A stretch of 64,000 nt of DNA, taken from the NCBI GenBank assembly GCA_050125095.1, contig JASFEA010000001.1, positions 1,389 to 65,388 of the forward strand, given 5' to 3'. Below are positions 42,412 to 64,000 of this stretch, piece after piece (position 1 is the first letter of the stretch; each line of letters opens with the position of its first letter). This stretch comes from a bacterium (GTDB lineage Bacteria > Arandabacterota > Arandabacteria > Arandabacterales > JALGWA01). The notes beneath the pieces are model-generated. The model did not search any database, was not told the DNA's origin, and was given only the letters and a program-made list of their open reading frames with translations. The translations under genes and the position numbers were made by a program.

Positions 42412-42831
42412 ATGGGTGATACACGCGTCAGGTTGTCCAGAGACAGGGTAATGAGTGACTTCGTAAAGCGCGTAAACGAAATAAGCGGTCAGAACGTCCT
42501 CAACTGCTATCAATGCGGCAGGTGTTCTTCCGGATGTCCCCTGACCTTCGCAATGGACCTTCTCCCGAGCCAGGTGATCAGGCTCGTTCAGCTGGGTCTG
42601 GAAGAGGAAGCTCTCGAGGGAAACACGCAGTGGCTCTGCGCATCATGCCTGACCTGTCATGCAAGATGCCCCAGGGGCGTTGATCTGGCCAAGGTAATGG
42701 AGGCGCTGAGAGCTCTCAAGCTGAGGCCGGGTAAGGAAAGCCGCATAAAGATAGAGGATATTCCCAAAGAGCAGCTGGCGAAGATGCCTCAGCAGGGTAT
42801 TGTCAGTGGTTTCAGGAAACTCACCGGTTAA
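42412..42831 (+). CDS. hdrC: Heterodisulfide reductase subunit C-like (HdrC; two [4Fe-4S] ferredoxin motifs)
   Basis: CYQCGRCSSGCP and CASCLTCHARCP motifs with the HdrC-type spacing. SD AAGGAGA lies 9 nt upstream of ATG 42412. Confidence 0.8.
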   Translation: MGDTRVRLSRDRVMSDFVKRVNEISGQNVLNCYQCGRCSSGCPLTFAMDLLPSQVIRLVQLGLEEEALEGNTQWLCASCLTCHARCPRGVDLAKVMEALRALKLRPGKESRIKIEDIPKEQLAKMPQQGIVSGFRKLTG

Positions 42832-42855
42832 GAGTCAGTGTCCCAGGAGGATATC

Positions 42856-43785
42856 GTGAAGGTAGCTTACTTTCCCGGTTGTACGCTCAAGACCAAGGCG
42901 AAGGGACTCGACGACTCGGTCGTGGACACCGCCAGGGCCCTGGGGTACGACCTCGAAGAGGTCCCGGACTGGACCTGCTGCGGGGCGACATTCAACCTTT
43001 CGGTTGACAACATCATGGCCCTCGCGCCGCCCATCCGCATACTCGCCAACGCGCAACAGATAGGAAAAGAAGTCGTGACGGTCTGCGCCGGTTGCTACAA
43101 CGTCCTCAAGCGCGCGAATTACACCGTCCGGAACGACCCCGAGAAACTCCAGAAGATCACCGATTTTATCGAACTCGATTACAACGGAGATACGGAGGTG
43201 CTCCACTACCTGGAGTTCCTGAGAGACAGGGTGGGGTTCGAGAAGATATCGAAGAACTTGAAGAGGGATCTTGGCGAGCTCAAGGTCGTACCCTATTACG
43301 GCTGCCAGCTCCTGAGGCCGCATGAGGAAGTCCTCCTGGACGATCCCGAGAATCCCATGATACTGGACAACATGCTCGAGGCCATCGGCTGCGATGTCCT
43401 CGAGTTTCCGCATAAGGGCGAGTGCTGCGGCGCGTTTCTCACCGTCTGCAGCAACCTCGAGGCCCGCCTGGCCGAGCCCGGCGACAGGCCGGACAACGCC
43501 GTCAGCGACTGCTCCTACACCATAGTGAACTCGGCCGGCAAGAGAGGGGCGGACCTCATCGTTCTGTCATGCCCGCTCTGCCAGTACAATATCGATTACT
43601 CGCAGGAGCGGATCATAAAGGAGCATTACGGCTTCAAGCAGGTGCCTTCGCTTTATTTCTCGCAGCTTCTGGCGCTTGCCCTCGGCCTCGACATGAACAA
43701 GTATTCTCTTGATGATAAGCATCATTTCATTAATCCCAAAGGAGTCATAGAACAGAAAGTCCTGTCTCAACGTGAGGTAGCCTGA
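42856..43785 (+). CDS. hdrB: Heterodisulfide reductase subunit B-like (HdrB; two CCG Cys-rich domains)
   Basis: Two CCG domains (YFPGCTL...WTCCGATF...CAGCY and YYGCQL...GECCGAFL...SCPLCQYN). Proposed GTG start at 42856 is preceded by AGGAGG at 6 nt. The track ORF is from 42838. Confidence 0.8.
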   Translation: MKVAYFPGCTLKTKAKGLDDSVVDTARALGYDLEEVPDWTCCGATFNLSVDNIMALAPPIRILANAQQIGKEVVTVCAGCYNVLKRANYTVRNDPEKLQKITDFIELDYNGDTEVLHYLEFLRDRVGFEKISKNLKRDLGELKVVPYYGCQLLRPHEEVLLDDPENPMILDNMLEAIGCDVLEFPHKGECCGAFLTVCSNLEARLAEPGDRPDNAVSDCSYTIVNSAGKRGADLIVLSCPLCQYNIDYSQERIIKEHYGFKQVPSLYFSQLLALALGLDMNKYSLDDKHHFINPKGVIEQKVLSQREVA

Positions 43786-45758
43786 TGAAAAGGATAGGCG
43801 TTTTCGTTTGCTGGTGCGGATCCAATATAGCTTCTACGGTCGACGTCGGCAAGGTGGTCGAGGCCGCGAAGAAGATGCCGGGTGTCGTGCACGCGGAGGA
43901 CTACAAGTACCTGTGCTCCGATCCCGGTCAGAACATAGTACAGAAGGCGATCGCGGACCACAACCTCGATGCCGTGGTCATAAGCGCTTGCACTCCGAGC
44001 CTCCACGAGCCCACGTTCAGGAAGGCCTGCGAGCTCTCGGGGCTCAACCCCTATCAGTGCGAGATAGCCAACATCCGCGAGCAGTGCAGCTGGGTGCACG
44101 ACGATCCGGAAGCCGCGACCAGGAAGGCGGTTCTGGTCATAAGGTCGATTGTAGAGAAGGTCAAGCTCAACGAGTCTCTCGATCCGATTACCGCGCCGCT
44201 CACGAAGCGCGCGATGGTGATCGGAGCCGGCATAAGCGGCATACAGTCCGCGCTTGACATCGCCAACGCCGGCTATGAGGTCGTTCTGGTCGAGCGCGAG
44301 CCGGCCATCGGCGGCCACATGGCGCAGCTATCGGAGACATTCCCGACGCTCGATTGCTCCCAGTGTATCCTCACTCCCAAGATGGTGGAAGTAAGCCGCC
44401 ATCCCAATATCAAGCTCATGACCTACAGCGAGGTCCTTGAGGTATCCGGCTTTGTGGGCAACTTCACCGCGAAGATACTCAAGAAGCCCAGGTACGTCAA
44501 AGAAGACGTGTGCACAAACTGCGGAGACTGCTCGGACGTATGCCCCGTGGTCGTGCCCAACGAGTTCGACCGGGGCCTTTCCTCCAGGCACGCCATATAC
44601 GTGCCTTTCCCGCAGGCCGTGCCCGCGATCTACACGCTGGACGCGAACTCATGTCTCGGGCTCTTCCCGCTGGCCTGCGAGAACTGCCGCAATGCATGCG
44701 AGGTCGACGCGATAGACTATGACATGGAACCCGAGGTCGTCGAAGAGCAGGTCGGAGCCATAGTGGTCGCCACCGGCTTCGACGTCTTTCCCATCGAGGA
44801 GATCAAGGAATACGGCTACGGCAAGTGCCCGGACATAATAGACGGGCTGCATTTCGAGCGGCTTCTCTCGGCCTCCGGTCCCACGCAGGGCGAGGTCAGG
44901 AGGCCTTCGGACGGCAAGGTTCCCAAGGAAGTGGTGTTCGTCCAGTGCGCCGGCTCGAGGGACACCGAACGCGGCAAGCCCTATTGCTCCAAGATATGCT
45001 GCATGTACACGGCCAAGCACGCGATGCTCTACAAGCACAAGGTGCATGACGGCCAGGCGTATATCTTCTATATCGACGTTCGCGCAGCCGGCAAGAACTA
45101 CGAGGAGTTCTACCAGCGCGGCGTCGAAGAGGACGGGACCATGTACTTGAGGGGCAAGGCCTCCAAGATCTTCGAGGAGGACGGCAAGGTCTATGTCTGG
45201 GGCTCTGATACGCTCACGGGCAAGAAGATCGAGATAGCCGCGGACATGGTAGTGCTGGCGGCCCCCATCATCCCGAGCGTGGGCACCGCCGAGCTCGCCA
45301 AGAAGCTCAGGATCCAGACCGATATAAACGGCTTCCTCTCGGAAGTGCATCCCAAGCTCAGGCCCGTGGAAAGTATCACTGCCGGGTACTTCCTGGCAGG
45401 CGCGGGGCAGGCTCCCAAGGACATTCCGGAGGCCGTCGCCCAGGCGAGCGGCGCCGCGAGCAAGGTGCTCGACCTCTTCAGCCAGAACGAGGTGCATCAC
45501 GACCCCATGATCGTCGGCATAGACGAGGACCTCTGCAGCGGCTGCGGCGTATGCGTCGGCGTATGCCCGTACTCGGCGAGGGAGCTGGATACCGAGCGCA
45601 AGAAGGTAAGGGTGATTGAGGTTCTCTGTGAAGGCTGCGGCGCCTGCGGGGCGGCCTGTCCCACAGGGGCGGCCCAGCAGAGGAACCTGACTGACAGGCA
45701 AGTTGCGACAATGGTCGGGGCCACGCTCGACACGTTAACAGAGGAAACAGAAGAGTAA
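43785..45758 (+). CDS. hdrA: Heterodisulfide reductase subunit A-like (HdrA; FAD plus multiple Fe-S clusters)
   Basis: HdrA N-terminal 4-Cys region (GVFVCWCGSNI...CSDPG...ISACTPS...REQCSW), FAD-binding GAGISGIQSALDIA, inserted ferredoxin CTNCGDCSDVCP, and C-terminal CSGCGVCVGVCP/CEGCGACGAACP. The start overlaps the hdrB stop (TGATG). Confidence 0.85.
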   Translation: MKRIGVFVCWCGSNIASTVDVGKVVEAAKKMPGVVHAEDYKYLCSDPGQNIVQKAIADHNLDAVVISACTPSLHEPTFRKACELSGLNPYQCEIANIREQCSWVHDDPEAATRKAVLVIRSIVEKVKLNESLDPITAPLTKRAMVIGAGISGIQSALDIANAGYEVVLVEREPAIGGHMAQLSETFPTLDCSQCILTPKMVEVSRHPNIKLMTYSEVLEVSGFVGNFTAKILKKPRYVKEDVCTNCGDCSDVCPVVVPNEFDRGLSSRHAIYVPFPQAVPAIYTLDANSCLGLFPLACENCRNACEVDAIDYDMEPEVVEEQVGAIVVATGFDVFPIEEIKEYGYGKCPDIIDGLHFERLLSASGPTQGEVRRPSDGKVPKEVVFVQCAGSRDTERGKPYCSKICCMYTAKHAMLYKHKVHDGQAYIFYIDVRAAGKNYEEFYQRGVEEDGTMYLRGKASKIFEEDGKVYVWGSDTLTGKKIEIAADMVVLAAPIIPSVGTAELAKKLRIQTDINGFLSEVHPKLRPVESITAGYFLAGAGQAPKDIPEAVAQASGAASKVLDLFSQNEVHHDPMIVGIDEDLCSGCGVCVGVCPYSARELDTERKKVRVIEVLCEGCGACGAACPTGAAQQRNLTDRQVATMVGATLDTLTEETEE

Positions 45759-45773
45759 AAAGGTGAGGTAACG

Positions 45774-46556
45774 ATGGCAGCGAAGAAAGCAGCTACTAAG
45801 CCCAAGACGAAGAAGGCAGCCAAAGACGCCGGGCCCGAGATGATTCCAATTTACATCATGGGCAAAAGGTACGACGTGCCCAAGGGCCTTACCATACAGA
45901 AGGCGCTTGAGTACGCGGGTATGACGCTTCTGCGCGGCTGCGGTTGCAGGGGTGGGTTCTGCGGCGCCTGCGGTACCGTTTACAGGACCAAAGGCGACTA
46001 CAAGCTCAAGGTCGCCCTGGCCTGCCAGACCGTCGTTGAAGACGGCATGTACCTTACCCAGATACCTTTCTATCCGGCTAACAAGGCCACGTACGATATC
46101 GAGAAACTCGGGCCCGTGCTCGAGGATGTTGTGCAGTGCTATCCCGAGCTCATGCGATGCGTGCAGTGCGGGACCTGCACCAAGGTGTGCCCGCAGGACA
46201 TCGACGTGATGCAGTACATGGCGACGGCCATGCGCGGAGACATCTCCCGCACGGCCGACCTCTCTTTCGACTGCATCATGTGCGGGCTCTGCGCGAGCCG
46301 CTGCCCGGCGGAGACGGTGCAGTACTACGTGGGCATCCTCAACAGGCGCCTCTACGGCAAGTATGTCGCGCCCGCGGCCAAGCACGTGCAGGAGAGAATC
46401 AAGGAGCTTGAGGCCAGCAAGTATGATAAGGAAATCGCCGACTACATGAAGATGGACAAAAAAGAACTTCAGAAAATATACGAATCAAGAGATATCGAAC
46501 CGGAAGACCTGAGTGTGGAGCCCGCTTTGACGGCTTCCGGCGAGAAGAACGACTGA
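45774..46556 (+). CDS. Succinate dehydrogenase/fumarate reductase iron-sulfur subunit-like protein (SdhB/FrdB/TfrB-type)
   Basis: Lys-rich N-terminal tail (KKAATKPKTKKAAKD), then a 2Fe-2S-type Cys pattern CGCRGGFCGACG and two ferredoxin-type motifs CVQCGTCTKVCP / CIMCGLCASRCP. No membrane-anchor gene is nearby. Confidence 0.7.
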   Translation: MAAKKAATKPKTKKAAKDAGPEMIPIYIMGKRYDVPKGLTIQKALEYAGMTLLRGCGCRGGFCGACGTVYRTKGDYKLKVALACQTVVEDGMYLTQIPFYPANKATYDIEKLGPVLEDVVQCYPELMRCVQCGTCTKVCPQDIDVMQYMATAMRGDISRTADLSFDCIMCGLCASRCPAETVQYYVGILNRRLYGKYVAPAAKHVQERIKELEASKYDKEIADYMKMDKKELQKIYESRDIEPEDLSVEPALTASGEKND

Positions 46557-46575
46557 ATTAAGGAGGAGAGTTGAG

Positions 46576-48243
46576 ATGGCACTGCAGCCGGGAGCTGACC
46601 CTTATCCCAAGTCAATGCGTGAGACCATAAAGAAGGTCGAAGCGACCCGTTCTCGCCGGATGTCAGAGGAGTTCGACCGGATTACCGCCGACCAGAAGGC
46701 GGACCTCTTGGAGAAGTACCATCCCGACCATAAAAGGGGCGAAATGGTCGAGATAAAGGTTGGCATTAGCAAGGGCGAGAAGACTCCCAAGGAAGTCGAG
46801 AACATACTGCAGGCATATAGCCGCCTCGACCCCAAGAGCTTCGACCTCAGCCGGGTCGACTTCGATGTCGACGTGCTCGTCATAGGCGGCGGCGGCGCCG
46901 GAGCGTCCGCGGCCCTTATGGCGCATGAGCAGGGCGCCAAGGTTCTGCTCACCACCAAGCTCCGTCTGGGCGATGCCAACACCATGATGGCGCAGGGCGG
47001 TATCCAGGCCGCCGACAAGCCCAATGATCCGCCGTCGAGGCACTATCTGGACGTCATAGGCGGCGGCGGATACTACAATATCCCCGAGCTCGTGAAGGCG
47101 CTCGTACTTGACGCGCCCCGCGTCATAGACTGGCTCCAGGGGCTCGGCACCATGTTCGACAAGACGGCCGACGGTACTTACGTCACGATACACGGCGGCG
47201 GCACGTCGAGAAGAAGGATGCACGCCGCGCGCGACTACAGCGGCGCCGAGATAATGAGAACGCTGAGGGACGAGGTCCTGAACCGGGGAATAGAGGTCGT
47301 CGAGTTCACAGCGGCCATCGAACTCCTGAAGGACGATGAAGGCAAGTGCGCCGGCGCCGTGCTCTATAATATGGAAACAGAAGAGCATTTCGTCTGCCGC
47401 GCCAAGACCACGGTGATAGCCACGGGCGGCGCCGGAAGGCTCCATGTCCAGGGCTTCCCGACTACCAACCATTACGGGGCGACGGCCGACGGGCTCGTTC
47501 TCGCCTATCGCGCGGGCGCTCCGTTCATATTCATGGACGCAATTCAGTACCACCCCACCGGGGCCGCATTTCCGGAGCAGATCCTGGGGCTCCTGGTAAC
47601 CGAGAAAGTGCGCGGCATGGGCGCCCAGCTGGTCAACATCGAAGGGGATCAGTTCATTTATCCCCTGGAGACCAGGGACGTTGTTGCGTCGGGCATCATA
47701 CGCGAGTGCGGCGAGAGGAAGAAGGGCATAAGCACGAACACCGGCATGGTCGGCGTGTGGCTGGACTCGCCCATGATAGACCTGAAGCACGGCCCGGGCT
47801 CGGTGAAGCGCGCGCTTCCCGCCATGGTCCGGCAATACGAGCGCTGCGACATAGACATGACCAAGGACCCGATCCTCGTCTTCCCTACGCAGCACTACCA
47901 GAACGGCGGTGTCCTCATCAACGACAAGGCCGAGGCCGGGTTGGCGAACCTCTTCATCGGTGGCGAGGCGGCCGGCGGCATTCACGGCCGTAACAGGCTG
48001 ATGGGGAACTCGCTGCTGGACATACTCGTATTCGGCAGGCGCGCGGGACTCAACGCTGCGGCGCTTTCCAAGAAGACCAAGATAGGCAAACTCACCCTCA
48101 AGCATGTTGGGGAATATCATAAGGATCTCGAGGCGGCAGGCGTTCCGAAGGAGAAGGTCTCGCCGATGCTGCTGCCCGACTACCGCACGCCTGAGACCAA
48201 GGAGAGGCAGAAAGGCCAGGTGCCGCTGGGCGGGGCTGTCTAG
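46576..48243 (+). CDS. Fumarate reductase/succinate dehydrogenase flavoprotein-family FAD oxidoreductase (FrdA/SdhA/TfrA-like), non-covalent FAD type
   Basis: FAD motif DVLVIGGGGAGASAA, QYHPTG (cf. QFHPTG), and active-site GEAAGGIHGRNRLMGNSLLDILVFGRRAG (cf. HGANRLGGNSLLD). There is no His at the covalent-FAD position (GDANTMMAQGG). There is a 90-aa N-terminal extension. SD AAGGAGGAG. Confidence 0.75.
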   Translation: MALQPGADPYPKSMRETIKKVEATRSRRMSEEFDRITADQKADLLEKYHPDHKRGEMVEIKVGISKGEKTPKEVENILQAYSRLDPKSFDLSRVDFDVDVLVIGGGGAGASAALMAHEQGAKVLLTTKLRLGDANTMMAQGGIQAADKPNDPPSRHYLDVIGGGGYYNIPELVKALVLDAPRVIDWLQGLGTMFDKTADGTYVTIHGGGTSRRRMHAARDYSGAEIMRTLRDEVLNRGIEVVEFTAAIELLKDDEGKCAGAVLYNMETEEHFVCRAKTTVIATGGAGRLHVQGFPTTNHYGATADGLVLAYRAGAPFIFMDAIQYHPTGAAFPEQILGLLVTEKVRGMGAQLVNIEGDQFIYPLETRDVVASGIIRECGERKKGISTNTGMVGVWLDSPMIDLKHGPGSVKRALPAMVRQYERCDIDMTKDPILVFPTQHYQNGGVLINDKAEAGLANLFIGGEAAGGIHGRNRLMGNSLLDILVFGRRAGLNAAALSKKTKIGKLTLKHVGEYHKDLEAAGVPKEKVSPMLLPDYRTPETKERQKGQVPLGGAV

Positions 48244-48358: not shown

Positions 48359-50446
48359 TTGAAGGAGTATAACACTGCTGACATTCGCAACGTGGTAACG
48401 GTGTCCCATGGAGGTGCAGGCAAGACTTCTCTTGCCGAATCATTGCTATTCGCCGGCAAGGCGACCTCCAGATTCGGCAAGGTCGATGACGGGAGCTCTG
48501 TGCTCGACTACGGCGAGGACGAGGCCGAAAGGAAAATCACCTTAAATCTCGCTGTCGCTCATATCGAGTATAAGAACACAAAGATCAACCTCATCGATAC
48601 GCCCGGCTACGCCGACTTCTACGGCGACACCAAGGCGGGGATCCGCGCGGCGGACGCGGCCCTGGTGCTGGTAAGGGCCGACGCGGGCATCGAAGTCGGC
48701 ACCGACAAGGTATGGGAGTTCACCGGGGAAGTCGGAATTCCCAGGCTCATAGTCATGAATCGCATGGACAAGGAGCACGCCGACTTCGACAAGGTGCTGG
48801 CCCAGCTGCAGGACCATTACGGGACCTCCGTTGCGCCGATGCATATACCGGTGGGCGCCGGTGATGGCTTCAGCGGCGTGGTCGACCTCCTCACAATGAA
48901 GTACTACAAGTACGAGCGCGGCAAGCCCGGAGCCGGGCTCATGCAGGACATCCCCGGCGACCTCAGCGACCGGGCGAAGTCCATGAGGGAGAAGCTCATA
49001 GAGAGCATAGCCGAGTCCAGCGACGAACTCCTTGAAGCTTATCTCGAAGGCAAGGACATACAGCAGGACGCCCTGGTCGGCGCGCTTCAGGCCGGCTTCA
49101 AGATGGGCAAGATCGTCCCCGTATTCTGTTCGGCGGCCGTTCACGGCATAGGCGCCCAGCAGATACTGGATGCCATTGCCGGCTTCTTTCCGTCGCCCCT
49201 GGATGCCGGCGAGTTCAAATGCACCAAGCCGGGATCCACTGAGGAGATTACGAGGAAGATCTCGGTCGACGACCCCTTCGCTGCGCTGGTCTTCAAGACC
49301 ATATCCGAGCCCCACCTGGGAGACATGTCCATATTCAAGGTATATAGCGGCGCCTTCAAGGAGGGCACCGAGGTCCAGAACTCGGTCAAGGGCTCTTCCG
49401 AGAAGGTCACCCAGCTCTACAGCCTGATGGGCAAGGAGAGGAGAGAGGTGAACAAGGTGGTGGCGGGCGACATCGGCGCCACGGTGAAGCTGAGGGACAC
49501 CTCGACCAACGATACGCTCTGCCAGAAGGGCAATCAGGTCATCATAGACCCCATCAAGTTCCCCAGGCCCGTCGTCAGGGAGGCGCTCTTCCCCAAGAAC
49601 AAGGGTGAAGAGGACAAGGTGTCGAGCGGAATGGCCAGGCTGCTCCAGGAGGACCCGACATTTACCATGGTCGTGGACCCCGAGATCAAGCAGACCATCG
49701 TCTCGGGCCTCGGCGAGCTCCACCTCGCGGTAATACTCGAAAGGCTCAAGAAGCGCTCGGGCGTTGAAGTATTACTCGAGAAGCCGCGGATTCCCTACAG
49801 GGAGACCATCAAGGGCAAAGCCGAGAAGCAGGGGAAGTACAAGAAACAAACCGGAGGCCGCGGGCAGTACGGCGACGTCTGGCTTCGCATAGAGCCCATG
49901 CCCAGGGGAGAGGGCTTCGAGTTCGCCGACGAGATTGTGGGCGGGGCGGTTCCCTCCAAATTCGTGCCGGCCGTGGAGAAGGGCGTCAAGGAGACCATGG
50001 AGAAGGGCGCCTACGCCGGATACAACGTCGTAGACGTCAAGGCCATAATATATGACGGGTCGTTCCACCCGGTAGACTCATCCGATATGGCTTTCAAGGT
50101 GGCTGCTTCCATGGCTTTCAAGAAGGCGTTTCTCGAAGCCAAGCCGATTCTCTTAGAGCCCATCATGAACATCACGGTCACGGTGCCCGAGGAGAACCTG
50201 GGCGACGTCATGGGCGACGTATCGAGCCGCAGGGGCAAGATCCAGGGTGTCGAAGGCAAAGGCAACCTCCAGGTCGTGAGGGCGTCGGTGCCGCTTGCGG
50301 AGCTCTACAAGTACTCCACCCAGCTCCGGTCGATGACTCAGGGCAGGGGCATGTACGAGAACGAGTTCTCTCATTATGAAGAGGTGCCCCACGAGATCGC
50401 CCAGAAGATAGCCGAAGAGCACCAGACCCAGGCGGCCGAGAAATAG
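48359..50446 (+). CDS. Elongation factor G paralog (EF-G-like translational GTPase) with His to Tyr substitution in the G3 motif
   Basis: Five-domain EF-G architecture (695 aa). G1 SHGGAGKTS, G2 RKITL and G4 NRMD are present, but G3 reads DTPGYADF (DNA acg ccc ggc tac gcc gac) instead of DTPGHVDF. TTG start preceded by GGGGGAAGGG. Confidence 0.75.
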   Translation: MKEYNTADIRNVVTVSHGGAGKTSLAESLLFAGKATSRFGKVDDGSSVLDYGEDEAERKITLNLAVAHIEYKNTKINLIDTPGYADFYGDTKAGIRAADAALVLVRADAGIEVGTDKVWEFTGEVGIPRLIVMNRMDKEHADFDKVLAQLQDHYGTSVAPMHIPVGAGDGFSGVVDLLTMKYYKYERGKPGAGLMQDIPGDLSDRAKSMREKLIESIAESSDELLEAYLEGKDIQQDALVGALQAGFKMGKIVPVFCSAAVHGIGAQQILDAIAGFFPSPLDAGEFKCTKPGSTEEITRKISVDDPFAALVFKTISEPHLGDMSIFKVYSGAFKEGTEVQNSVKGSSEKVTQLYSLMGKERREVNKVVAGDIGATVKLRDTSTNDTLCQKGNQVIIDPIKFPRPVVREALFPKNKGEEDKVSSGMARLLQEDPTFTMVVDPEIKQTIVSGLGELHLAVILERLKKRSGVEVLLEKPRIPYRETIKGKAEKQGKYKKQTGGRGQYGDVWLRIEPMPRGEGFEFADEIVGGAVPSKFVPAVEKGVKETMEKGAYAGYNVVDVKAIIYDGSFHPVDSSDMAFKVAASMAFKKAFLEAKPILLEPIMNITVTVPEENLGDVMGDVSSRRGKIQGVEGKGNLQVVRASVPLAELYKYSTQLRSMTQGRGMYENEFSHYEEVPHEIAQKIAEEHQTQAAEK

Positions 50447-50497: not shown

Positions 50498-50577
50498 CCC
50501 CGGATGCACAGCCAAACATATGCCCCTTCCGGGCTCGGAGCCCGGGAGGGGTAGTTTTATCAGCCGAAGGACTCCAC

Positions 50578-52224: not shown

Positions 52225-52346
52225 GCGCGATGCGGGAGCGTCAAGCAAGCGCAGTTATGCAGCCGGATGATTCCGGCAGTATAAGGAGAAGTAAGGGAAG
52301 TGGTTTGAAACCGCCTGGTCAGATTGCCAGAAAGGGGAGGTAACAG

Positions 52347-54382: not shown

Positions 54383-54586
54383 CCGGCCGACCCGCGGCAG
54401 CCGGGCAGACAGCAGAACGTGAAATAAAGCATGAATGGATGTAGTAGGTGTCGAGATAGAGCGTTGGCCTGCGGAATGGAATTAAAAAGGGGGTATCGTG
54501 GCCGGTTCCCAAGGGGACCGATTCCGCTCTGCAGCAGATTCAAGGATGGGTTAATCGGCAGTGGACCGCTTAATAGGAGGACAACA

Positions 54587-58044: not shown

Positions 58045-58269
58045 ATGGCGACAGAACAACTCGATTGTCTGGGACTGAAGTGCCCGCAGCCTATACTGAA
58101 AGTCGTGGCGAAGATACCGTCCATGCAGGCGGGCGACATCCTTGAAGTTCTGGCGGACTGCCCGTCCTTCCCGACGGACATGAAGGCCTGGTGCGAGAAG
58201 ACGGGCAAGGTCCTGCTCATGCTCACGACCGACGGGGCAGGCAAGCATACGGCGCAGATCCAGCTATAA
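58045..58269 (+). CDS. TusA-family sulfur carrier protein (second copy)
   Basis: 74 aa. LDCLGLKCPQPILKVVAKI CPxP motif. 30 nt downstream of the DsrE-like gene, the dsrE-tusA pairing known from sulfur-oxidiser hdr loci. Confidence 0.8.
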   Translation: MATEQLDCLGLKCPQPILKVVAKIPSMQAGDILEVLADCPSFPTDMKAWCEKTGKVLLMLTTDGAGKHTAQIQL

Positions 58270-58391: not shown

Positions 58392-58832
58392 ATGAGCGAA
58401 GGTCAGCAAAAAGCGGAGTTCACCCCGAAGATAGTGGGTTTTCTCTGCAACTGGTGCACTTACGCGGCCGCCGATCTCGCCGGTTCGACCAAACTCGAGA
58501 TATCGCCGTCCCTCACCGTGATCCGGGTGATGTGCTCCAGCCGGGTAGACCATAACCTGGTTCTCACGACCTTTTTCCGGGGGGCGGACGGCATTCTGAT
58601 AGCGGGCTGTCATCCCGGTGACTGCCATTACGGCAAGGGCAATTATTACGCTAGACGCAGGTACGCGGTGCTCAAGAGGGTGATGGAGGGGCTGGGGCTG
58701 GAGCCGGAGAGACTCCAATTGTCGTGGGTATCGGCCTCTGAAGGCAATCGCTATGCCGATGTAGTGAACGCATTTTCGGAGAAGATAAAGGCGCTGGGGC
58801 CGAATCCCATAAGCGGCAGGGCGGACTTCTGA
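58392..58832 (+). CDS. MvhD-like (methyl-viologen-reducing hydrogenase delta subunit family) Fe-S protein
   Basis: FLCNWCTYAAADLAG...VMCSSRV...GADGILIAGCHPGDCHY is the MvhD/FlxD signature. Confidence 0.8.
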   Translation: MSEGQQKAEFTPKIVGFLCNWCTYAAADLAGSTKLEISPSLTVIRVMCSSRVDHNLVLTTFFRGADGILIAGCHPGDCHYGKGNYYARRRYAVLKRVMEGLGLEPERLQLSWVSASEGNRYADVVNAFSEKIKALGPNPISGRADF

Positions 58833-58847: not shown

Positions 58848-60176
58848 ATGCACCATGAGAATGTAGTTGTGGTGGGAGCCGGACTCGCCGGGATGAAGGC
58901 GAGCCTCCTGCTTGCCCAGGCGGGCAAGAAGGTCCATCTCGTTGAGACTCTTCCCCTGATAGGCGGCAAGACCATCAAGAATGAGGAGAGCTTCCCGAAC
59001 CTGGAATGCTCGACATGCCTCGTGGCGCCCATACAGCAGGCCGTGCTTCAGAATCCGGACATAGAAGTCATGACGATGAGCGCTGTGGAGAAGGTAGAGG
59101 GAGACGAGGGCGACTACACCGTGACAGTCAAGAAGTCCGCGAGGTACGTGAAGGTGGCGGACTGTATCGGTTGTGGGATGTGTTATGAGCCGTGCCCCGT
59201 TTCCGTGTCCAACGAATGGGAAGAAAACCTTGGTGAGAGAAAGGCGATTTACGTGCCGTGCCCGGGTTCGCTGCCCAATGTGCCGACCGTGGATCCGGAA
59301 CACTGCCTGAAACTGAGCGGCAAGGGGGAATGCACCGCCTGTGTGGAGGCCTGCATGTTCGGAGCCGTCAATCTGGAGGACAGGGACGAGACAGTCAAAA
59401 TAGAGGCCGGCGCCATGATCGTGTCCACCGGCGCTGGCGTCTTCGACGTTTCGAAGCTCCCCGACCTCGGCTACGGCGAGTATCCCGGGGTCTACACGCC
59501 CTTCGAGTTCGAGAGGCTTTTCGCCTCAAACGGCCCCACGCTCGGGGAACTCAAGTTGCGGGGCACGGAGAACGCGCCCGGGAAGATAGCGATCATCCAC
59601 TGCGTGGGCCGGAAAGAGTGCGGGTACTGCTCGGGCGTATGCTGTATGTATTCTTTCAAGTTCGCGCACTTCCTCAAGAAGAAACTGCCGGAGGCGTCGG
59701 TTTACAATCTGCACTCGGATATCTGCGTGCCCGACAAGACCTATCAGAAGTTCTTCGATGGCGTCAACGGCAAGCATTCGGAGATGATTTACAACTCGTC
59801 GATGGAGAGTCTCAAGGTAACGGGTTCGGGCGACGGCCTGCAGGTCACCTATCTCGACGAGGCCGGCGCGGAGAAGAACCTCGAGGTCGATATGGTCATA
59901 TTGGCCGCCGCCATGGTCCCGGAAGAAGGGACACGGAATCTGGCCGAAGTGCTCGGGATAGACCTGGACGCCGCGGGCTTCTTCAAAGTGCGTGACGACG
60001 ACATAGCCTCGGTGGAGACCTCCAGGAAGGGGATATTCGTTGCCGGCACGGCTGAGGGCCCCAAGGACAGCCAGTCTTCCGTAATACAGGCCGATGCGGC
60101 CGTGGGCAAGGTCCTGGCCTTTCTGGAGTCCTTGAAGCCGCAGCCGGAAGAGGCGGCGGCGGGGGGACAGGGTTGA
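58848..60176 (+). CDS. HdrA/QmoA-like FAD oxidoreductase with one ferredoxin insert (no N-terminal 4-Cys domain)
   Basis: FAD-binding VVVVGAGLAGMKASLLLAQAGKKVHLVE...IGG. Ferredoxin motifs CIGCGMCYEPCP and CTACVEACMFGAV. HdrA-type motif HCVGRKECGYCSGVCCMYSFK. Confidence 0.75.
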   Translation: MHHENVVVVGAGLAGMKASLLLAQAGKKVHLVETLPLIGGKTIKNEESFPNLECSTCLVAPIQQAVLQNPDIEVMTMSAVEKVEGDEGDYTVTVKKSARYVKVADCIGCGMCYEPCPVSVSNEWEENLGERKAIYVPCPGSLPNVPTVDPEHCLKLSGKGECTACVEACMFGAVNLEDRDETVKIEAGAMIVSTGAGVFDVSKLPDLGYGEYPGVYTPFEFERLFASNGPTLGELKLRGTENAPGKIAIIHCVGRKECGYCSGVCCMYSFKFAHFLKKKLPEASVYNLHSDICVPDKTYQKFFDGVNGKHSEMIYNSSMESLKVTGSGDGLQVTYLDEAGAEKNLEVDMVILAAAMVPEEGTRNLAEVLGIDLDAAGFFKVRDDDIASVETSRKGIFVAGTAEGPKDSQSSVIQADAAVGKVLAFLESLKPQPEEAAAGGQG

Positions 60177-60190
60177 TGCAGGAAGCGTCT

Positions 60191-61873
60191 ATGAAAGCGA
60201 AAATCGGAGTATATGTCTGCGAATGCGGGCCCAATATCGGCCAGAGCATTGACATACCGAGGGTTCTCGAGTCGATTCCAGCCCTGGAAGGCTATGAGGA
60301 CGTAGAACTTGTCCCGAAGAGTTACGGCCTGCTCTGCTCTCCGGACGGCAAGGAACACCTGAAGAAGGAAATCCAGGAGAACGGATACACGCATCTTGTC
60401 ATAGCGGCCTGTTCGCCAAGGGACCACGATTCGACCTTCATGGGCATATGCAAGCAGGCCGGACTCAATCCCTATCTCTATAAGATCATAAACATACGCG
60501 AGCACTGCGGCTGGATAATACATGACAAAGACGCGGCAACCGAAAAGGCGATCCAGTACATAAGCGGGGGCATCAGCAGGGTCCTATATCAGTCGGAGCT
60601 CTTCGAGAGGCAGCTTGAGATTACCCCCGACGTGCTCGTCATAGGCGGCGGCGTGGCGGGCATAGAAACGGCGCTCTCGCTCGCCGGCGAGGACAGGAAA
60701 GTCTATCTGGTGGAGAGGGCGGAAGAACTGGGGGGAAGCGCGGCCCGGTTCGCCTCGCTTCTTCCCCGCCAGCAAGGCGGAGCGGACCTGATAAGAAGCA
60801 AAATCGAGGCGGTCGGAGAGAACGAGCATATCCGGGTCCTCCTCAATACCGAGGTCGAGAGCTCGATAGGGTTCCTGGGCAATTTTGAGGTTGTGCTTGC
60901 AGGCAAAAGTGACGGCGAGAAGACAGATATCAAGGTCGGGGCGATAGTGGTGGCCACGGGCTGCCGCATGTCGGACCCGAGGAGCTTCGCGGGCATAGAA
61001 TACGCCGACTCGGATGAGGTCTATACGTCGCCTGAGGTTGAGAAGATGAATACCGGCGGGGCGATTACCCTCCGCTCGGGCGAGAAGCCTGCATCGGTGG
61101 CGCTTGTCCACTGCGTGGGCCGGGGCGAGAAGGGCTACTGCTCACGGGTCTGCTGCAACTACATGATGAAGATCGCCGGCTATTTCAAGAAACAGTCGAA
61201 GGAAACCAAAGTAACTGAGTTCTTCGTTGATATGTGCGTTCCCCACAAGGCCGACCAGAAATTCTTCGACGAATCGGCGCGCCTTGGTATCGATTTCAAG
61301 CGTGTCCGTAAGATCGGACTTTCCGGCACCAGAGTCGAATTCAAGGGGATGGACGGCAAAAAGCAGCAAATGGACTTCGATATGGTTGTCCTGGCTTCGG
61401 CGTTGGAGCCCTCCGAGGGCACGGAGGCGCTGGCAGGGCTTCTGGAGATAGACCTCGATGATAGGGGATTCTACCGGGAGGCGCATCATACCACCGATCC
61501 GGTGGCCACTTCCATCGACGGCATTTTCGTGGCCGGTGCCTCACAGGGCCCCAGGGACATATCCGATTCGATATTGCTGGCCCAGGCCTCGGCGGGGCGA
61601 ATCCGCGCCCAGCTGATACCGGGAGGCAAGATAGTGCCCGAAGTCAAGGTGTCCGAGATCCTCGAAGCCTATTGCACGGGATGCAAGACCTGTCTCGAAG
61701 TGTGCGGTTATGGCGCAATCTACTTCGACGATCAGAAGGGAATATCGGTGGTGAACGAGGCGGTTTGCAGGGGTTGCGGCAATTGCTTCGGCAGTTGCCC
61801 GTCCGGGGCCCTCCGGACGAAGCACTTCACGAACAGCCAGCTCCTGCGGGAGGTAACCGAGGCGCTGAAATAG
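60191..61873 (+). CDS. HdrA-like FAD/Fe-S oxidoreductase (second copy, with N-terminal Cys cluster and C-terminal ferredoxin)
   Basis: KIGVYVCECGPNI...LLCSPDG...IAACSPRD...REHCGW (HdrA N-domain), FAD motif VLVIGGGVAGIETAL, HCVGRGEKGYCSRVCCNYMMK, C-terminal CTGCKTCLEVCG/CRGCGNCFGSCP. The ATG at 60191 is preceded by AGGAAG. The track ORF is from 60173. Confidence 0.8.
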   Translation: MKAKIGVYVCECGPNIGQSIDIPRVLESIPALEGYEDVELVPKSYGLLCSPDGKEHLKKEIQENGYTHLVIAACSPRDHDSTFMGICKQAGLNPYLYKIINIREHCGWIIHDKDAATEKAIQYISGGISRVLYQSELFERQLEITPDVLVIGGGVAGIETALSLAGEDRKVYLVERAEELGGSAARFASLLPRQQGGADLIRSKIEAVGENEHIRVLLNTEVESSIGFLGNFEVVLAGKSDGEKTDIKVGAIVVATGCRMSDPRSFAGIEYADSDEVYTSPEVEKMNTGGAITLRSGEKPASVALVHCVGRGEKGYCSRVCCNYMMKIAGYFKKQSKETKVTEFFVDMCVPHKADQKFFDESARLGIDFKRVRKIGLSGTRVEFKGMDGKKQQMDFDMVVLASALEPSEGTEALAGLLEIDLDDRGFYREAHHTTDPVATSIDGIFVAGASQGPRDISDSILLAQASAGRIRAQLIPGGKIVPEVKVSEILEAYCTGCKTCLEVCGYGAIYFDDQKGISVVNEAVCRGCGNCFGSCPSGALRTKHFTNSQLLREVTEALK

Positions 61874-61950
61874 GTCTGCCCGGGACGCCGCCCGTAAGGG
61901 GAGGGCCGGGCATGGAGATTGAGAGTGGTTAGAGCATTTGGAGAGGCGAT

Positions 61951-63117
61951 TTGATAAGCGATCCTGAAAAGCAAGGTGCCGCCATGAAGGCCGCCGGGGG
62001 GATAGAGGACGCAGTGCGGGGCTTCCTGCGCGAGGCGCTCAAGAGCTCCGCGGCCGATGCCGTGCTCGTGCCTGTGAGGACCCCGGCTGAGGATTCTTAC
62101 GCCTGGATACTGACCAATAATCCCTCGGTTCTGGACAATGCCAGGCCCGCGGCCCCCACGATGCCCGTTCAGGGCGCCAAGGCCCTTAAGAGCCTTACCA
62201 GGAAGGGAGAGGGCAAGGCCAGGATCATAGCCGTCATGAGACCCTGCGAGATCAGAGCGGCCATCGAGCTGTACAAGCTCAACCAGGTGCATCTGGACAA
62301 TATCACCCTCATAAGCTATGACTGTGTCGGAGCTGTCCCTCTTCAGGATTACATAAGTGACCCTGCGGGCAGTGAAAAGCGCTTCGATTCGATGCTCAAG
62401 GCAGGGAAGACGGATGACTCCGCGGTCAAACCCGTATGCAGGATATGCGTCGACTTCTCTCTGGTGGATTCGGACATACATATCGGGCTCATCGGGCAGT
62501 CGGGCGGTTCGGCCCTGCTGGTTCCCAACAGCGAGAAGGGGCAGGCCCTGCTCGAATCCATGGGAATGGCCTGCGGGGAGGACATCTCCGGATGGACCAA
62601 GACCGTAGCCCAGATGAAGGTGGAGAGAGAGGGCGCCAGAGCCAGGGCGCTCGCGGAAATGGGGACGAGGCTTCAGGGCTTCGACGGGCTCAGCGCGACT
62701 TTCGCGGATTGTATCGGTTGCCATAATTGCCAGAGCGTGTGCCCCATCTGTTACTGCAGGCAGTGCTACTTCGACTCCGATGCGTCAAGGCAGGACGCGG
62801 CCTCTATTCTGGATACCGCGATCGAACGCGGCGGCGTAGCTTTCCCGGGCAACAGGGTAATGTTCCATACAGGGAGAATGGCGCATATGAGCCTCTCCTG
62901 CGTTTCATGCGGGCAGTGCTCTGACGCTTGCCCGGTCTCTATTCCGGTAGCCGACATCTTCAGTTATATGGCCGGCCTCACACAGCCGACCTTCGAATAC
63001 ACGGCGGGCAGGAACGACGGCGAGCCGCTTCCTCTCAGGCATTTCAAGGAAAAAGAAGTCGAAAAAGTCCACGAAATCGTCAAGGGCGCCGAGGAAGAGG
63101 AGGTAGCTCATGAGTAG
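61951..63117 (+). CDS. FrhB/FdhB-family (coenzyme F420 hydrogenase/dehydrogenase beta-subunit-like) Fe-S flavoprotein
   Basis: FrhB N-domain followed by the C-domain Cys pattern CIGCHNCQSVCPICYC and CVSCGQCSDACP. Confidence 0.7.
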   Translation: MISDPEKQGAAMKAAGGIEDAVRGFLREALKSSAADAVLVPVRTPAEDSYAWILTNNPSVLDNARPAAPTMPVQGAKALKSLTRKGEGKARIIAVMRPCEIRAAIELYKLNQVHLDNITLISYDCVGAVPLQDYISDPAGSEKRFDSMLKAGKTDDSAVKPVCRICVDFSLVDSDIHIGLIGQSGGSALLVPNSEKGQALLESMGMACGEDISGWTKTVAQMKVEREGARARALAEMGTRLQGFDGLSATFADCIGCHNCQSVCPICYCRQCYFDSDASRQDAASILDTAIERGGVAFPGNRVMFHTGRMAHMSLSCVSCGQCSDACPVSIPVADIFSYMAGLTQPTFEYTAGRNDGEPLPLRHFKEKEVEKVHEIVKGAEEEEVAHE

Positions 63118-64000
63118 AGTCAGGATCGACATGAGCTCCTCGGAGGGTGCTGTCGCCTTCCTGAAGCACCTGCTTGGGTCCGGCAAGGTGAGCGCCATTC
63201 TCACGATGCGGAAGAATCCGGGCACGGGGGCCTATGACATAGGTCTTATCGCCGATGAGGCCGGCCTCGATAATGCGGCGCCGGTCGCCCCGGTGATGGT
63301 GGCCAATACCGGACGGGTTCTCTCCTCGCTGACGCCCGCGGCGAAGCCCCTGGCAGTGATGCTGAAGCCCTGCGAACTCCGCGCGTTTGTGGAGCGCGTT
63401 AAGCGGGACCAGGGTTCATTCGAGAACCTGCTGATCATATCCTATACATGCGGAGGGGTTTTCCCTCTGGATGAGGCCATCGGGGAGCACTTCCAGGATT
63501 CGATTCCCGATTATTTCAGACGCGTCGCCTCGGGCGAGATCGTAGAAGGCGTTCGGGAGACCTGCAAGGCATGCGAGCACTTTGTGCCCACCTGCGCCGA
63601 CGTGACCATCTCCATAGCGGGCGACCGGGATTCGACCTCGGGCTGCTCCATTTACCTCAATACCGACAGGGCCAGGGAAATGGCGGAAGGCCTCGAAGGA
63701 AAGCAGTCGGACGACGAATTCGATCCAGCCGTGACTGCGGAACTGGCCGTGAAGCGGACGGCGGAGAAGAAAAAGGTCTTTGATTCCCTCGCTCCGGCCG
63801 GTGACGGCCTGGACGGTCTTATAGAGATTTTCGGGAAGTGCGTGGGATGCCACGGTTGCGGGCACGTCTGCCCCATCTGTTACTGCGTCCTGTGTGATTT
63901 TGAATCGCATAGCTTCGATTACAATCTGCCCTACTTCGAAAAGGAGCTCTCCGAGAAGGGTTCCCTGAGGCTGCCGCCCGACACGATTTTCTTCCACCTG
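63110..64000 (+). CDS. Second FrhB/FdhB-family Fe-S flavoprotein, 3'-truncated by the window end
   Basis: The ATG at 63110 overlaps the upstream stop (ATGAGTAG). The in-frame ORF stays open to position 64000. Contains CKACEHFVPTCADV and CVGCHGCGHVCPICYC. Absent from the ORF track because no stop falls in the window. Confidence 0.7.
   Translation, partial: MSRVRIDMSSSEGAVAFLKHLLGSGKVSAILTMRKNPGTGAYDIGLIADEAGLDNAAPVAPVMVANTGRVLSSLTPAAKPLAVMLKPCELRAFVERVKRDQGSFENLLIISYTCGGVFPLDEAIGEHFQDSIPDYFRRVASGEIVEGVRETCKACEHFVPTCADVTISIAGDRDSTSGCSIYLNTDRAREMAEGLEGKQSDDEFDPAVTAELAVKRTAEKKKVFDSLAPAGDGLDGLIEIFGKCVGCHGCGHVCPICYCVLCDFESHSFDYNLPYFEKELSEKGSLRLPPDTIFFHL

Follow-up and report, generated by a model that had tools for sequence, protein, structure and literature searches.

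In the sHdr-LbpA systems of Hyphomicrobium, Aquifex and Acidithiobacillus, a cytoplasmic relay of TusA and DsrE-family proteins is encoded directly beside genes for heterodisulfide reductase (Hdr)-like proteins, with rhodaneses and an ArsR-type regulator nearby. The same combination is found in a bacterial DNA stretch of 64,000 nucleotides from contig JASFEA010000001.1 (hereafter the window). Here, a run of plus-strand genes between positions 42412 and 64000 encodes the parts of an envelope-to-cytoplasm series: a porin, rhodaneses, a YeeE/TusA pair, a DsrE-TusA pair and an MvhD-HdrA-HdrA-FrhB-FrhB module. An initial reading of the window (the original prediction) had pointed out this series, which is directly seen in the sequence, and had maintained that the layout departs from the canonical sHdr, Qmo, Flx and Mvh-Hdr clusters. 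The latter claim is borne out, since from each of these systems some defining features are missing here. Our central observation is that the DsrE-TusA pair and the HdrA module are linked in diverse relatives. As a tentative interpretation, which we favour with somewhat less than even confidence, we propose that an Hdr machine linked to NAD(P)H and ferredoxin would use imported sulfane sulfur, held on the second TusA copy (TusA2) and DsrE, as its electron acceptor.

Protein families were called with Pfam and NCBIfam, and the weaker calls were checked by profile searches against PDB; across 42412-64000, the NCBIfam and PDB searches agree with the Pfam calls. All of the domain families originally named were recovered by Pfam/NCBIfam, namely HdrC, HdrB and HdrA, an SdhB-like and a TfrA-like protein, ArsR, two copies of TusA, YeeE/YedE, three rhodaneses, Porin_O_P, DsrE, MvhD, two HdrA-like and two FrhB-like proteins.

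Despite the shared relay, the locus differs from sHdr clusters in several respects. sHdrA is small (about 350 amino acids) and has no ferredoxin domains, whereas the two HdrA paralogues considered here, HdrA442 and HdrA565, are of the large methanogen type and both carry ferredoxin domains. The HdrB1B2C1C2 set is absent, the only hdrC-hdrB pair lying 15 kb upstream in another operon. On the other hand, the cluster adds three MvhD proteins, four FdhB-like proteins, HdrL and NAD(P)H modules. Pfam detected no GcvH/lipoyl (LbpA) match among the open reading frames (ORFs) of the window that were scanned, nor in the continuation of the cluster, in keeping with the earlier remark that no lipoate-binding protein is encoded in the window. 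The locus was rejected as a member of the sHdr group because its HdrA proteins are of another type and because neither HdrB1B2 nor, in the window and its continuation, LbpA is encoded.

The core proteins are closest to the Fdh-MvhD-HdrABC and Elp-Hdr complexes of methanogens (7bkb and 8rvu). These provide the best sequence or fold matches of HdrA442, HdrA565, MvhD and FrhB388, and have the same wiring from an FdhB-like subunit through MvhD to HdrA. The core of HdrA that binds flavin adenine dinucleotide (FAD), the accessory iron-sulfur (Fe-S) domains and MvhD are all present in the window, but HdrA is split into two complementary paralogues. In addition, FdhA and hydrogenase are lacking, most clusters have no HdrBC, the bacterial hosts do not possess coenzyme M (CoM) or coenzyme B (CoB), and sulfur-relay genes occupy positions in which no methanogen has them. 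Since the primary dehydrogenase is absent, membership in the Mvh/Fdh-Hdr group was likewise rejected.

For FlxABCD-HdrABC of Desulfovibrio, an NADH dehydrogenase/heterodisulfide reductase, DsrC is the presumed substrate. In both this system and the present locus, a sulfur-carrier protein is envisaged in the role of the 'heterodisulfide'. Moreover, the continuation of the cluster encodes NAD(P)H-binding AsrB/HydG-like and AsrA/HydB-like subunits and MvhD beside HdrA, a resemblance at the family level only. However, the order (HdrL-MvhD3-FrhB321-HydB-HydG-HdrC-FrhB378-HdrA) is different, FrhB-like proteins and HdrL come in addition, HdrB is missing from the vicinity, and TusA2/DsrE would replace DsrC as the carrier; gene order and the missing HdrB exclude the locus from this group. 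QmoABC, too, combines a short HdrA paralogue (about 440 amino acids) with a longer, different one encoded next to it, again in the context of sulfur metabolism. What distinguishes the present locus is the absence of a membrane QmoC (the HdrC-like proteins here are soluble and have 139-156 amino acids) and of aprAB, and an MvhD encoded as a separate gene. The QmoC model matches only with its N-terminal HdrC-like part (71-75 bits; cut-off 300), and, judged by the absence of QmoC and aprAB, the locus would not belong to the Qmo group. Finally, the type II yeeE-tusA-dsrEFH (YTD) clusters of Desulfobacterota and cable bacteria (PMC13293266) also combine a YedE/YeeE-like transporter, TusA and a DsrE-like gene. 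In the window, though, DsrE has no DsrF/H-like partners, mvhD-hdrA follows in place of DsrC/DsrAB service, and a porin and periplasmic rhodaneses are added. The single DsrE-family gene, coding for 119 amino acids, led us to reject this assignment, too. Judged by analogy, the system would work most like a hybrid, with the parts and wiring of methanogen FdhB/Elp-MvhD-Hdr and, as in Flx-Hdr/DsrC and sHdr/TusA-DsrE, a bacterial sulfur-carrier protein as the Hdr substrate.

Clusters of this kind have been noticed before, though briefly. In a 2021 study of Cloacimonadota metagenome-assembled genomes (MAGs), Hdr genes were described in one cluster with genes for TusA, a transporter and a secreted sulfurtransferase, and sHdr-like oxidation was assumed (Williams et al. 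2021, PMC8542988). A 2025 survey of Cloacimonadota describes just MvhADG-HdrABC, and our search of the open-access literature returned no paper combining TusA, HdrA and FrhB. Features that appear to be undescribed are how widely the association is distributed, the dedicated two-Cys TusA2, HdrA split into a pair, a family of rhodaneses with a SoxY-like tail, a Cys-bearing porin and the link to a fumarate branch. Sulfidic sediments and digesters commonly harbour candidate phyla such as Cloacimonadota, Neomarinimicrobiota, Fermentibacterota, Krumholzibacteriota and Eisenbacteria, whose energy metabolism has largely been guessed.

Linkage of a DsrE-TusA2 relay to an HdrA core

Conservation of the gene neighbourhood was analyzed in two directions. 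The forward sample consisted of 80 genome loci found through relatives of FrhB388 and labelled by tblastn with all cluster proteins; 44 of them had enough upstream sequence to be informative. Paralogues (TusA1/2 and MvhD1/2/3) were assigned by best hit. It turned out that the core mvhD1-hdrA442-hdrA565-frhB388-frhB364-mvhD2 is present in all labelled genome loci. Among the 44 informative loci, 30 have tusA2 as the gene immediately preceding mvhD1, and in 25 of those 30 dsrE is there as well. The TusA2-mvhD1 loci come from Eisenbacteria, Krumholzibacteriota, Neomarinimicrobiota, Cloacimonadota, Delongbacteria, Dehalococcoidia and one Thermoplasmatales MAG. The reverse sample was drawn from an independent collection and comprised the best 80 of 401 TusA2-type genes in metagenome contigs. 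In this sample, mvhD, as part of mvhD-hdrA-hdrA, is located directly downstream of TusA2 in 61 of 65 cases and dsrE directly upstream in 55 of 66. TusA2 is therefore essentially dedicated to the mvhD-hdrA core, and the adjacency of relay and core is far beyond chance. Instead of being scattered in relatives, the genes are co-localised across at least seven phylum-level groups. As for habitats, the source MAGs carry names of sulfidic or anoxic sites (Zodletone, cold seeps, the sulfate-methane transition zone).

It is hardly credible that these are independent operons that merely happen to be neighbours on one strand. The region does comprise at least three transcription units with unrelated genes in between, and the core occurs without TusA2 or DsrE in 14 of the 44 informative loci. 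Nevertheless, the association holds both ways and across phyla (30/44 and 61/65), and in the window the genes from rhd3 to hdrA565 are separated by gaps of just 16-123 nucleotides.

The surroundings of the core fall into several layouts. The import block tusA1-yeeE-rhd1-rhd2-porin-rhd3 is found beside it in eight loci (L003, L007, L008, L027, L032, L043, L045 and L058) from four groups, Eisenbacteria, Krumholzibacteriota, Neomarinimicrobiota and Cloacimonadota. In three others (L041, L070 and L072) tusA1-yeeE is downstream of the core, as is tusA1 alone in L064, where the locus ends. A subset of Cloacimonadota has hdrC-hdrB-hdrA-mvhD, then the core, then an Fe-S protein and a flavoprotein, and lacks the relay. 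In a third layout, which includes dsrE-tusA2, a gene for an HdrD-like CCG protein comes before the core, and behind it are genes for either malic enzyme and fumarate hydratase or succinyl-CoA synthetase. We also observed, in L025, L056 and L082, a recurring four-gene set some 3-5 kb up- or downstream of the core that encodes a GlcD-like FAD oxidase, an HdrD-like protein (Fer4 and two CCG domains), a 185-residue HdrA fragment and a 129-residue MvhD-like protein; this set resembles a module for an HdrD-linked hydroxy-acid dehydrogenase.

In the window, the core opens with MvhD1 (58392-58832), a [2Fe-2S] adaptor to HdrA that scores 171 bits with FlpD and 169 bits with the MvhD part at the C-terminus of HdrA2. 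HdrA442 (58848-60176) aligns with residues 145-561 of methanogen HdrA (5odc_A) at 253-266 bits. From a reading of its sequence, it has just the FAD core with the inserted ferredoxin domain, and neither the N- nor the C-terminal domain. HdrA565 (60176-61873) aligns with methanogen HdrA in two stretches (277-340 bits), the alignment skipping approximately positions 262-317. It has the N-terminal domain and the C-terminal ferredoxin domain, and its FAD core lacks the inserted ferredoxin domain; the domains are named here as in the published HdrA structure. Together, HdrA442 and HdrA565 would form an asymmetric pair with one copy of each accessory domain. Scores for methanogen HdrA and sHdrA (6tjr_A) are 266 versus 92 bits for HdrA442 and 340 versus 98 bits for HdrA565, so by sequence both belong to the methanogen, bifurcating type and not to the sHdr type.

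FrhB388 (61951-63117) is a predicted flavin/Fe-S subunit of the FdhB/Elp type within the FrhB family. Its PDB matches (9t1s_M, 7bkb_E and 8rvu_E; E-values of 1e-19 to 1e-25) are FdhB subunits that feed Hdr via MvhD, and 15 Cys are invariant in its alignment. The AlphaFold model (pTM 0.72) is confident for residues 1-245, and a Foldseek comparison with 7bkb_E yielded an E-value of 3e-15 and a TM-score of 0.61. Because the Fe-S half has pLDDT below 50, this fold match rests on the N-terminal flavoprotein-like domain. The next gene encodes a paralogue, FrhB364 (63110-64000), which is cut by the window end and has 364 amino acids in a related contig. The profile matches, along with a Pfam match to FrhB_FdhB_C (33 bits), identify the FrhB-like proteins as predicted Hdr input subunits of the FdhB/Elp type. 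Since, in addition, both HdrA proteins are of the methanogen type, the analogy with sHdr-like sulfur oxidation that had been drawn for the Hdr module is weak.

The suspicion that the locus runs on past the window was correct, as the continuation is seen in two related contigs. The JGI contig L002 (201.8 kb) is 99.4% identical to the window tail and colinear with it. It encodes FrhB364, MvhD2, a 1020-residue double HdrA ("HdrL"), MvhD3 and FrhB321, and beyond these a HydB/AsrA-like Fe-S protein (178 bits), a HydG/AsrB-like NAD(P)H flavoprotein (226 bits to PRK08345), an HdrC-like protein, a true FrhB (FrhB378) and an HdrA fragment fused to a NuoE-like domain. In the 108-kb contig L084, from an 86% identical relative, the cluster ends with a NuoF-like protein, a 1089-residue 2Fe-2S/4Fe-4S/GltD-like protein and a second DsrE-family gene (17255-17797, minus strand, 180 amino acids), which is convergent; the genes beyond are unrelated. 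By sequence family, the cluster thus appears to continue into NAD(P)H modules that are Flx/HydBG-like and NuoEF/Stn-like. The 1089-residue protein resembles Stn-type transhydrogenase subunits. From arsR to the cluster end, as represented by L002 and L084, we found no hydrogenase, FdhA/molybdopterin subunit, sirohaem protein, sulfite-forming enzyme or HdrB.

The two relay genes directly precede this core. DsrE (57655-58014, 119 amino acids) matches DrsE_2 with 38 bits and DsrE with 30 bits. Its profile matches DsrE-family structures 2qs7, 3pnx and 3mc3. A single Cys (L.CEL) is invariant among 30 orthologues and is aligned with Cys in the 2qs7 and 3pnx alignments. TusA2 (58045-58269; TusA 65.6 bits) has the active-site Cys in a CPQP motif, and its best PDB match is E. 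coli TusA. A second Cys (ADC.SFP) is also invariant in 38 orthologues, and an AWC Cys is present as well. The extra Cys aligns to the Asp of ADDP in E. coli TusA and to DCP of E. coli YedF. A dedicated TusA/DsrE pair fixed in front of a methanogen-type HdrA module, which recurs across hundreds of contigs from metagenomes, suggests a sulfur-linked redox reaction outside the textbook Dsr, Sox and sHdr routes.

An sHdr-like oxidation is nonetheless a reading that needs to be weighed. Sulfane sulfur on TusA/DsrE would be converted to sulfite by the Hdr-like proteins, and the electrons would reach fumarate through the Tfr-like protein, or serve CO2 fixation by way of NAD(P)+ and ferredoxin, or both. 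Sets of TusA, DsrE and rhodanese are reported always to accompany sHdr (PMC11094781), and the locus of Ca. Stygibacter (L061) was interpreted in this way in PMC8542988. Fumarate-branch genes are repeatedly adjacent to the core, and sulfane oxidation with fumarate is thermodynamically possible by estimate. What makes us consider oxidation unlikely is the much closer affinity of HdrA442 and HdrA565 to methanogen HdrA, along with the lack of HdrB in most clusters, of the paired HdrB1B2/HdrC1C2 set, of a lipoate-binding protein among the scanned window ORFs and of any sulfite-handling gene in the 35-kb cluster. Moreover, the hosts are described as fermentative anaerobes (PMC8542988 and the 2025 phylum survey).

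Candidate envelope sulfur route and its putative regulator

Upstream of the relay, the window encodes the proteins of a candidate sulfur import route, for which signal peptides and lipoboxes are visible in the translations. TusA1 (52347-52580; TusA 95.7 bits) has a CPMP active site, and 12 orthologues share its GLSCPMPI motif without change. Where TusA2 has its second Cys, TusA1 has GTDPGSK. Sixty nucleotides downstream of tusA1 is yeeE (52643-53854), so a YeeE-type transporter has its TusA-family partner adjacent. The encoded inner-membrane protein of 403 amino acids belongs to the YedE/YeeE family (Sulf_transp, 159 bits). In an alignment to 6leo, it retains all three Cys that are essential in S. 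thermophila YeeE (C22, C91 and C293 of that protein). Its scores with the named NCBIfam models are well below the cut-offs: 120 versus 350 bits for YedE/FdhT, and 94 versus 400 and 73 versus 645 bits for TsuA.

Three rhodanese-fold proteins and a porin gene complete the block. Rhd1 (53870-54382; Rhodanese 66 bits) is a lipoprotein with the lipobox LAGC. The catalytic Cys is absent (YGHKVDRG), and an acidic linker leads to a C-terminal GGCGG. The tail, consisting of the acidic linker and GGCG(G), is invariant in 9/9 syntenic orthologues, whereas the active-site position is occupied by G, S or C. The Rhd1-type family is made up of distinct rhodanese-fold proteins of 155-184 amino acids, mostly with a lipobox. 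Behind a linker that is acidic or rich in Ser and Pro, G-G/S-C-G(-G) forms the end of 54 of the 56 best database homologues, the other 2 ending in GGC. Members also occur in Bacteroidales and Paludibacter, while generic 126-residue rhodaneses do not have the tail. The variable active-site position suggests that the rhodanese catalytic Cys is dispensable in the family. A C-terminal Gly-Gly-Cys-Gly-Gly arm is the motif of the SoxY swinging arm. In its sequence, Rhd1 accordingly resembles a GGCGG-tailed carrier with a SoxY-like arm, although its body is a rhodanese domain and no SoxZ is present.

Rhd2 (54587-55555) is a lipoprotein with a lipobox and two rhodanese domains, both of which have a Cys (CLTGQ and YCWTGQTS) that is conserved in orthologues. 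Rhd3 (56762-57628; Rhodanese 134 bits) has a signal peptide and the two-domain SseA/TST architecture; it scores 129 bits with NCBIfam SseA, which is below the cut-off, and the Cys of its catalytic YC..S.RAG motif is invariant. The claim of three envelope rhodaneses therefore stands with regard to fold and predicted location but not to catalysis, as only Rhd2 and Rhd3 have the catalytic Cys. The Porin_O_P outer-membrane porin (55671-56714, 53 bits) has Cys kept across phyla. Those of QGCM, just past the signal peptide, and of N..C..L.T..RS are invariant, and a GGGCGG loop is mostly conserved. Conserved cysteines are unusual for an outer-membrane porin. Taken together, thiol relay Cys are invariant in TusA1, YeeE (all three), Rhd2, Rhd3, the porin, DsrE and TusA2.

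A comparable arrangement, an outer-membrane porin gene beside a lipoprotein sulfurtransferase/rhodanese and an inner-membrane YeeE, is known from Desulfurivibrio dismutans; neither a GGCGG-tailed rhodanese nor a Cys-bearing porin is described in the available excerpt of that report (PMC12142623). Set against this arrangement and ExtH/ExtI of Geobacter, the locus lacks a multihaem cytochrome. In titles and abstracts of the open-access literature, we likewise found no GGCGG-tailed rhodanese lipoprotein. The two proteins would be concrete parts of an undescribed hand-over of sulfur at the outer membrane.

The same proteins could instead belong to a selenium (or tellurium) route, in which a YedE/YedF-like pair with an ExtH/ExtI-like rhodanese and porin would take up and reduce selenite or deliver selenium. 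The best NCBIfam match of the transporter is indeed YedE/FdhT, the porin matches ExtI, Rhd3 matches ExtH (both from a selenite/tellurite reduction operon), and the second Cys of TusA2 coincides with DCP of YedF. However, all of these matches are far below the cut-offs (120 versus 350 bits for the transporter, 41 versus 150 for ExtI and 75 versus 200 for ExtH), which is why we keep selenium as a minor and very improbable rival. In addition, both TusA copies match TusA better than YedF in NCBIfam, no selD, selA, selB or in-frame TGA was seen in the window, the source habitats are rich in sulfur, and a trace element would hardly warrant a redox cluster of 35 kb.

The regulator encoded ahead of the import block is an ArsR/SmtB protein of 88 amino acids (51899-52165; HTH_5 51.4 bits). 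It scores 87 bits with the metalloregulator subfamily and 55 bits with the BigR model, for which the cut-off is 155. Two Cys, at the start of helix alpha-3 and in the beta-wing, are invariant in 12/12 orthologues. The BigR/SqrR-positioned Cys that had been ascribed to this protein does not hold up, because the BigR Cys (LMLVCTL) aligns to Val in the window's ArsR. Sensing of the BigR/SqrR type, which uses a pair in helices alpha-2 and alpha-5, was accordingly rejected on Cys position. In Fermentibacteria, arsR is directly before mvhD and is the sole gene of the set retained upstream of it. The interval between arsR and tusA1 contains two imperfect inverted repeats, 52176-52223 (19-nucleotide arms, 79% complementary) and 52255-52284 (13-nucleotide arms, 85%), which are possible operator or attenuator sites.

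Proposed fates of the carrier-bound sulfur

If sulfur is reduced, as we tentatively prefer, the observed parts could be assembled into a conserved two-part system of anaerobic bacteria of the Fibrobacteres-Chlorobi-Bacteroidetes (FCB) group, with a thiol-based sulfur route in the envelope and a flavin/Fe-S machine in the cytoplasm. The Cys-bearing Porin_O_P porin would be the entry through the outer membrane. The lipoproteins Rhd1 and Rhd2 and the soluble periplasmic Rhd3 would then take up sulfane sulfur, the substrate being polysulfide, elemental sulfur or a related species, with Rhd1 as the SoxY-armed carrier; thiosulfate or polysulfide, the substrates named in the original prediction, are likewise conjectural. 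The YedE/YeeE channel and TusA1 would carry the sulfur into the cytoplasm and hand it to the dedicated pair of DsrE and two-Cys TusA2. The cytoplasmic machine would consist of the asymmetric HdrA442/HdrA565 pair, MvhD adaptors and FdhB-like flavoproteins, followed by HdrL and the Flx/HydBG-like and NuoEF/Stn-like modules. A persulfide (or di- or trisulfide) on TusA2/DsrE would take the role that CoM-S-S-CoB has in methanogens. As for the direction of the reaction, the carrier-bound sulfur would be reduced to sulfide by electrons from NAD(P)H and, by electron bifurcation, this would be coupled to the reduction of ferredoxin. Fumarate, reached via the upstream HdrCB and TfrA-like module, may provide a second acceptor branch, and the two-Cys ArsR repressor would switch the system on.

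A number of points weigh against such a scheme. No catalytic site for S-S or S-SH reduction was identified among the cluster proteins. The sulfane/sulfide couple, at about -270 mV, is a poor high-potential partner for NADH-driven bifurcation, and the characterised TusA/DsrE relays known to us feed oxidising enzymes. The relay-less loci (14/44), together with Fermentibacteria that have just ArsR, mean that the core is independent of the relay. Proteins with CCG domains of the HdrB/D type were found in just 12 of 83 loci, and the single one of the window is encoded 15 kb upstream in another operon. Furthermore, both synteny samples consist of the 80 best-scoring relatives of the query and are hence biased.

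A different role for the carrier pair is also conceivable. TusA2/DsrE would be a dithiol/disulfide shuttle, analogous to DsrC and standing in for CoM-SH/CoB-SH, by which the HdrA machine is connected with both the Tfr-like fumarate reductase and HdrD-linked dehydrogenases. In that case, the porin-rhodanese-YeeE block would serve uptake on its own, for assimilation or detoxification, and would share the regulon by coincidence in some lineages. Such a shuttle could account for the second invariant Cys beside the active-site loop of TusA2, which TusA1 does not have, and for the presence of DsrE-TusA2 without the import block in most loci. It would also fit the genes adjoining the core (Tfr, fumarase, malic enzyme, succinyl-CoA synthetase, an HdrD-like protein and a GlcD-like oxidase) and, to our knowledge, bacteria have neither CoM nor CoB. 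Nevertheless, where the import block is present in Eisenbacteria, Krumholzibacteriota, Neomarinimicrobiota and Cloacimonadota, it always adjoins the core. Moreover, a second DsrE gene closes the L084 cluster, and DsrE-family proteins are known as sulfur carriers rather than disulfide shuttles. We therefore regard the shuttle as quite unlikely.

Returning to carrier-bound sulfur as the preferred acceptor, a more far-reaching form of this proposal is an uncharacterised mode of energy conservation in fermentative FCB-group anaerobes. A covalent thiol-to-thiol relay of sulfane sulfur, running through the Cys-lined porin, the SoxY-tailed rhodanese lipoprotein, YedE/TusA1 and DsrE, would load the two-Cys TusA2, which would replace CoM-S-S-CoB as the high-potential acceptor of an NAD(P)H-fed, bifurcating HdrA heterodimer, and the reduction of sulfur or fumarate would yield reduced ferredoxin without a membrane respiratory chain. 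We consider this doubtful. If carrier-bound sulfur is indeed the Hdr substrate, the long-sought 'heterodisulfide' of bacterial HdrA complexes would be identified for these lineages, and a cytoplasmic, chain-independent process of sulfur reduction (or oxidation) would join the sulfur cycle.

Upstream module and neighbouring genes

Some 15 kb upstream, the plus-strand run begins with five genes for a second Hdr-containing module. The HdrC-like protein (42412-42831, 139 amino acids) has two [4Fe-4S] motifs (Pfam Fer4_8/9/17) and scores 69.5 bits with NCBIfam HdrC and 71.5 bits with the N-terminal part of QmoC, both below the cut-offs. It is followed by an HdrB-like protein of 315 amino acids (42838-43785) with two complete CCG domains (66.8 bits) and the C..CCG..CxxC motif occurring twice; NCBIfam scores are 166 bits for HdrB and 157 bits for the SdhE/Mfr anchor. 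The third gene (43785-45758) encodes a full-length HdrA of 657 amino acids that matches HdrA2 with 834.6 bits over profile positions 1-643. As read from its Cys motifs, this protein has the N-terminal domain, the FAD core, the inserted ferredoxin domain and the C-terminal ferredoxin domain. Next come an SdhB/TfrB-N-like Fe-S protein of 260 amino acids (45774-46556; 2Fe-2S and two 4Fe-4S; Pfam Fer2_4, Fer2 and Fer4) and a flavoprotein of the fumarate-reductase family (46576-48243, 555 amino acids; FAD_binding_2 235.8 bits), whose genes also adjoin each other in the Cloacimonadota loci.

The flavoprotein scores 333 bits with NCBIfam TfrA, which is below the cut-off. Aligned to 7d6v, it retains the fumarate-site motifs HPTG, VRG, HY.NGG and NRL.GNSL, and has Asn at the position of the His that binds FAD covalently, which makes it the non-covalent FAD type. 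The retained motifs and this Asn point to a soluble, TfrA-like fumarate reductase. Methanogen TfrAB likewise combines a flavoprotein with non-covalent FAD, an SdhB-like Fe-S protein and CCG domains. Here, however, the CCG domains are on the separate HdrB-like protein, and the module is encoded together with hdrC and a full hdrA. The original prediction had made this module part of the locus. The linkage is genuine, since Cloacimonadota carry the module placed around the same core, but in the window it forms a separate transcription unit.

In total, 21 consecutive plus-strand ORFs fill positions 42412-64000, all with a coding-type GC content at third codon positions (GC3). Refined starts are 51899 for arsR, 52643 for yeeE, 53870 for rhd1, 54587 for rhd2 and 60176 for hdrA565. 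A start at 54431 gives a spurious N-terminal extension of rhd2, and the rhd1-rhd2 gap (54383-54586) is 204 nucleotides. The single 22-kb super-locus envisaged at first could not be maintained. The region is about three transcription units, because it is broken up by a gene for an EF-G paralogue (48359-50446, all five EF-G domains in Pfam), a gene for a xylose-isomerase-like TIM barrel (50578-51516, by Pfam neither a sulfur nor a redox gene) and a strong terminator-like hairpin (50521-50553). This hairpin lies 3' of the EF-G gene, has a 15-bp stem with 10 GC pairs followed by a T run, is the strongest of its kind in the region and ends the first transcription unit. The EF-G gene closes the hdrCBA-FeS-flavoprotein unit, a position in which the presence of a translation GTPase has no evident explanation. 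It is co-transcribed by position but probably not a functional part of the system.

The plus-strand run starts directly after a divergent and complete Tol-Pal cluster (37725-42196, minus strand; TolQ, TolR, TolA-like, TolB, Pal and CpoB-like). The 215-nucleotide region between it and hdrC contains the best promoter-like match (minus strand, 42252-42224). Overall, the promoter scan was at random level (9 sites versus 7.1 expected), and we therefore do not claim promoters. Rfam and tRNA scans of the window returned no match.

Elsewhere in the window, four DUF4136 paralogues lie within 13 kb (5423-6064, minus; 7706-8392, plus; 16470-17171, plus; 17869-18432, minus), and among them are ORFs without a Pfam match (6144-7559, 8399-8995, 12475-14844, 14982-16181 and 17175-17780). 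Three ORFs picked by GC3 on the minus strand (22823-23392, 23522-24070 and 32573-33550) have a high GC content at first codon positions (0.75-0.79) and may be Gly/Ala-rich proteins or false calls. Regarding the source, the closest genomes as judged by FrhB388 are Candidatus Eisenbacteria MAGs (78% amino-acid identity). A 1181-residue gingipain-like C25 peptidase (26162-29707), adjoined by a sulfatase gene (24198-26033, minus strand), has a type IX secretion system (T9SS) C-terminal sorting domain, which fits an origin from the FCB group.

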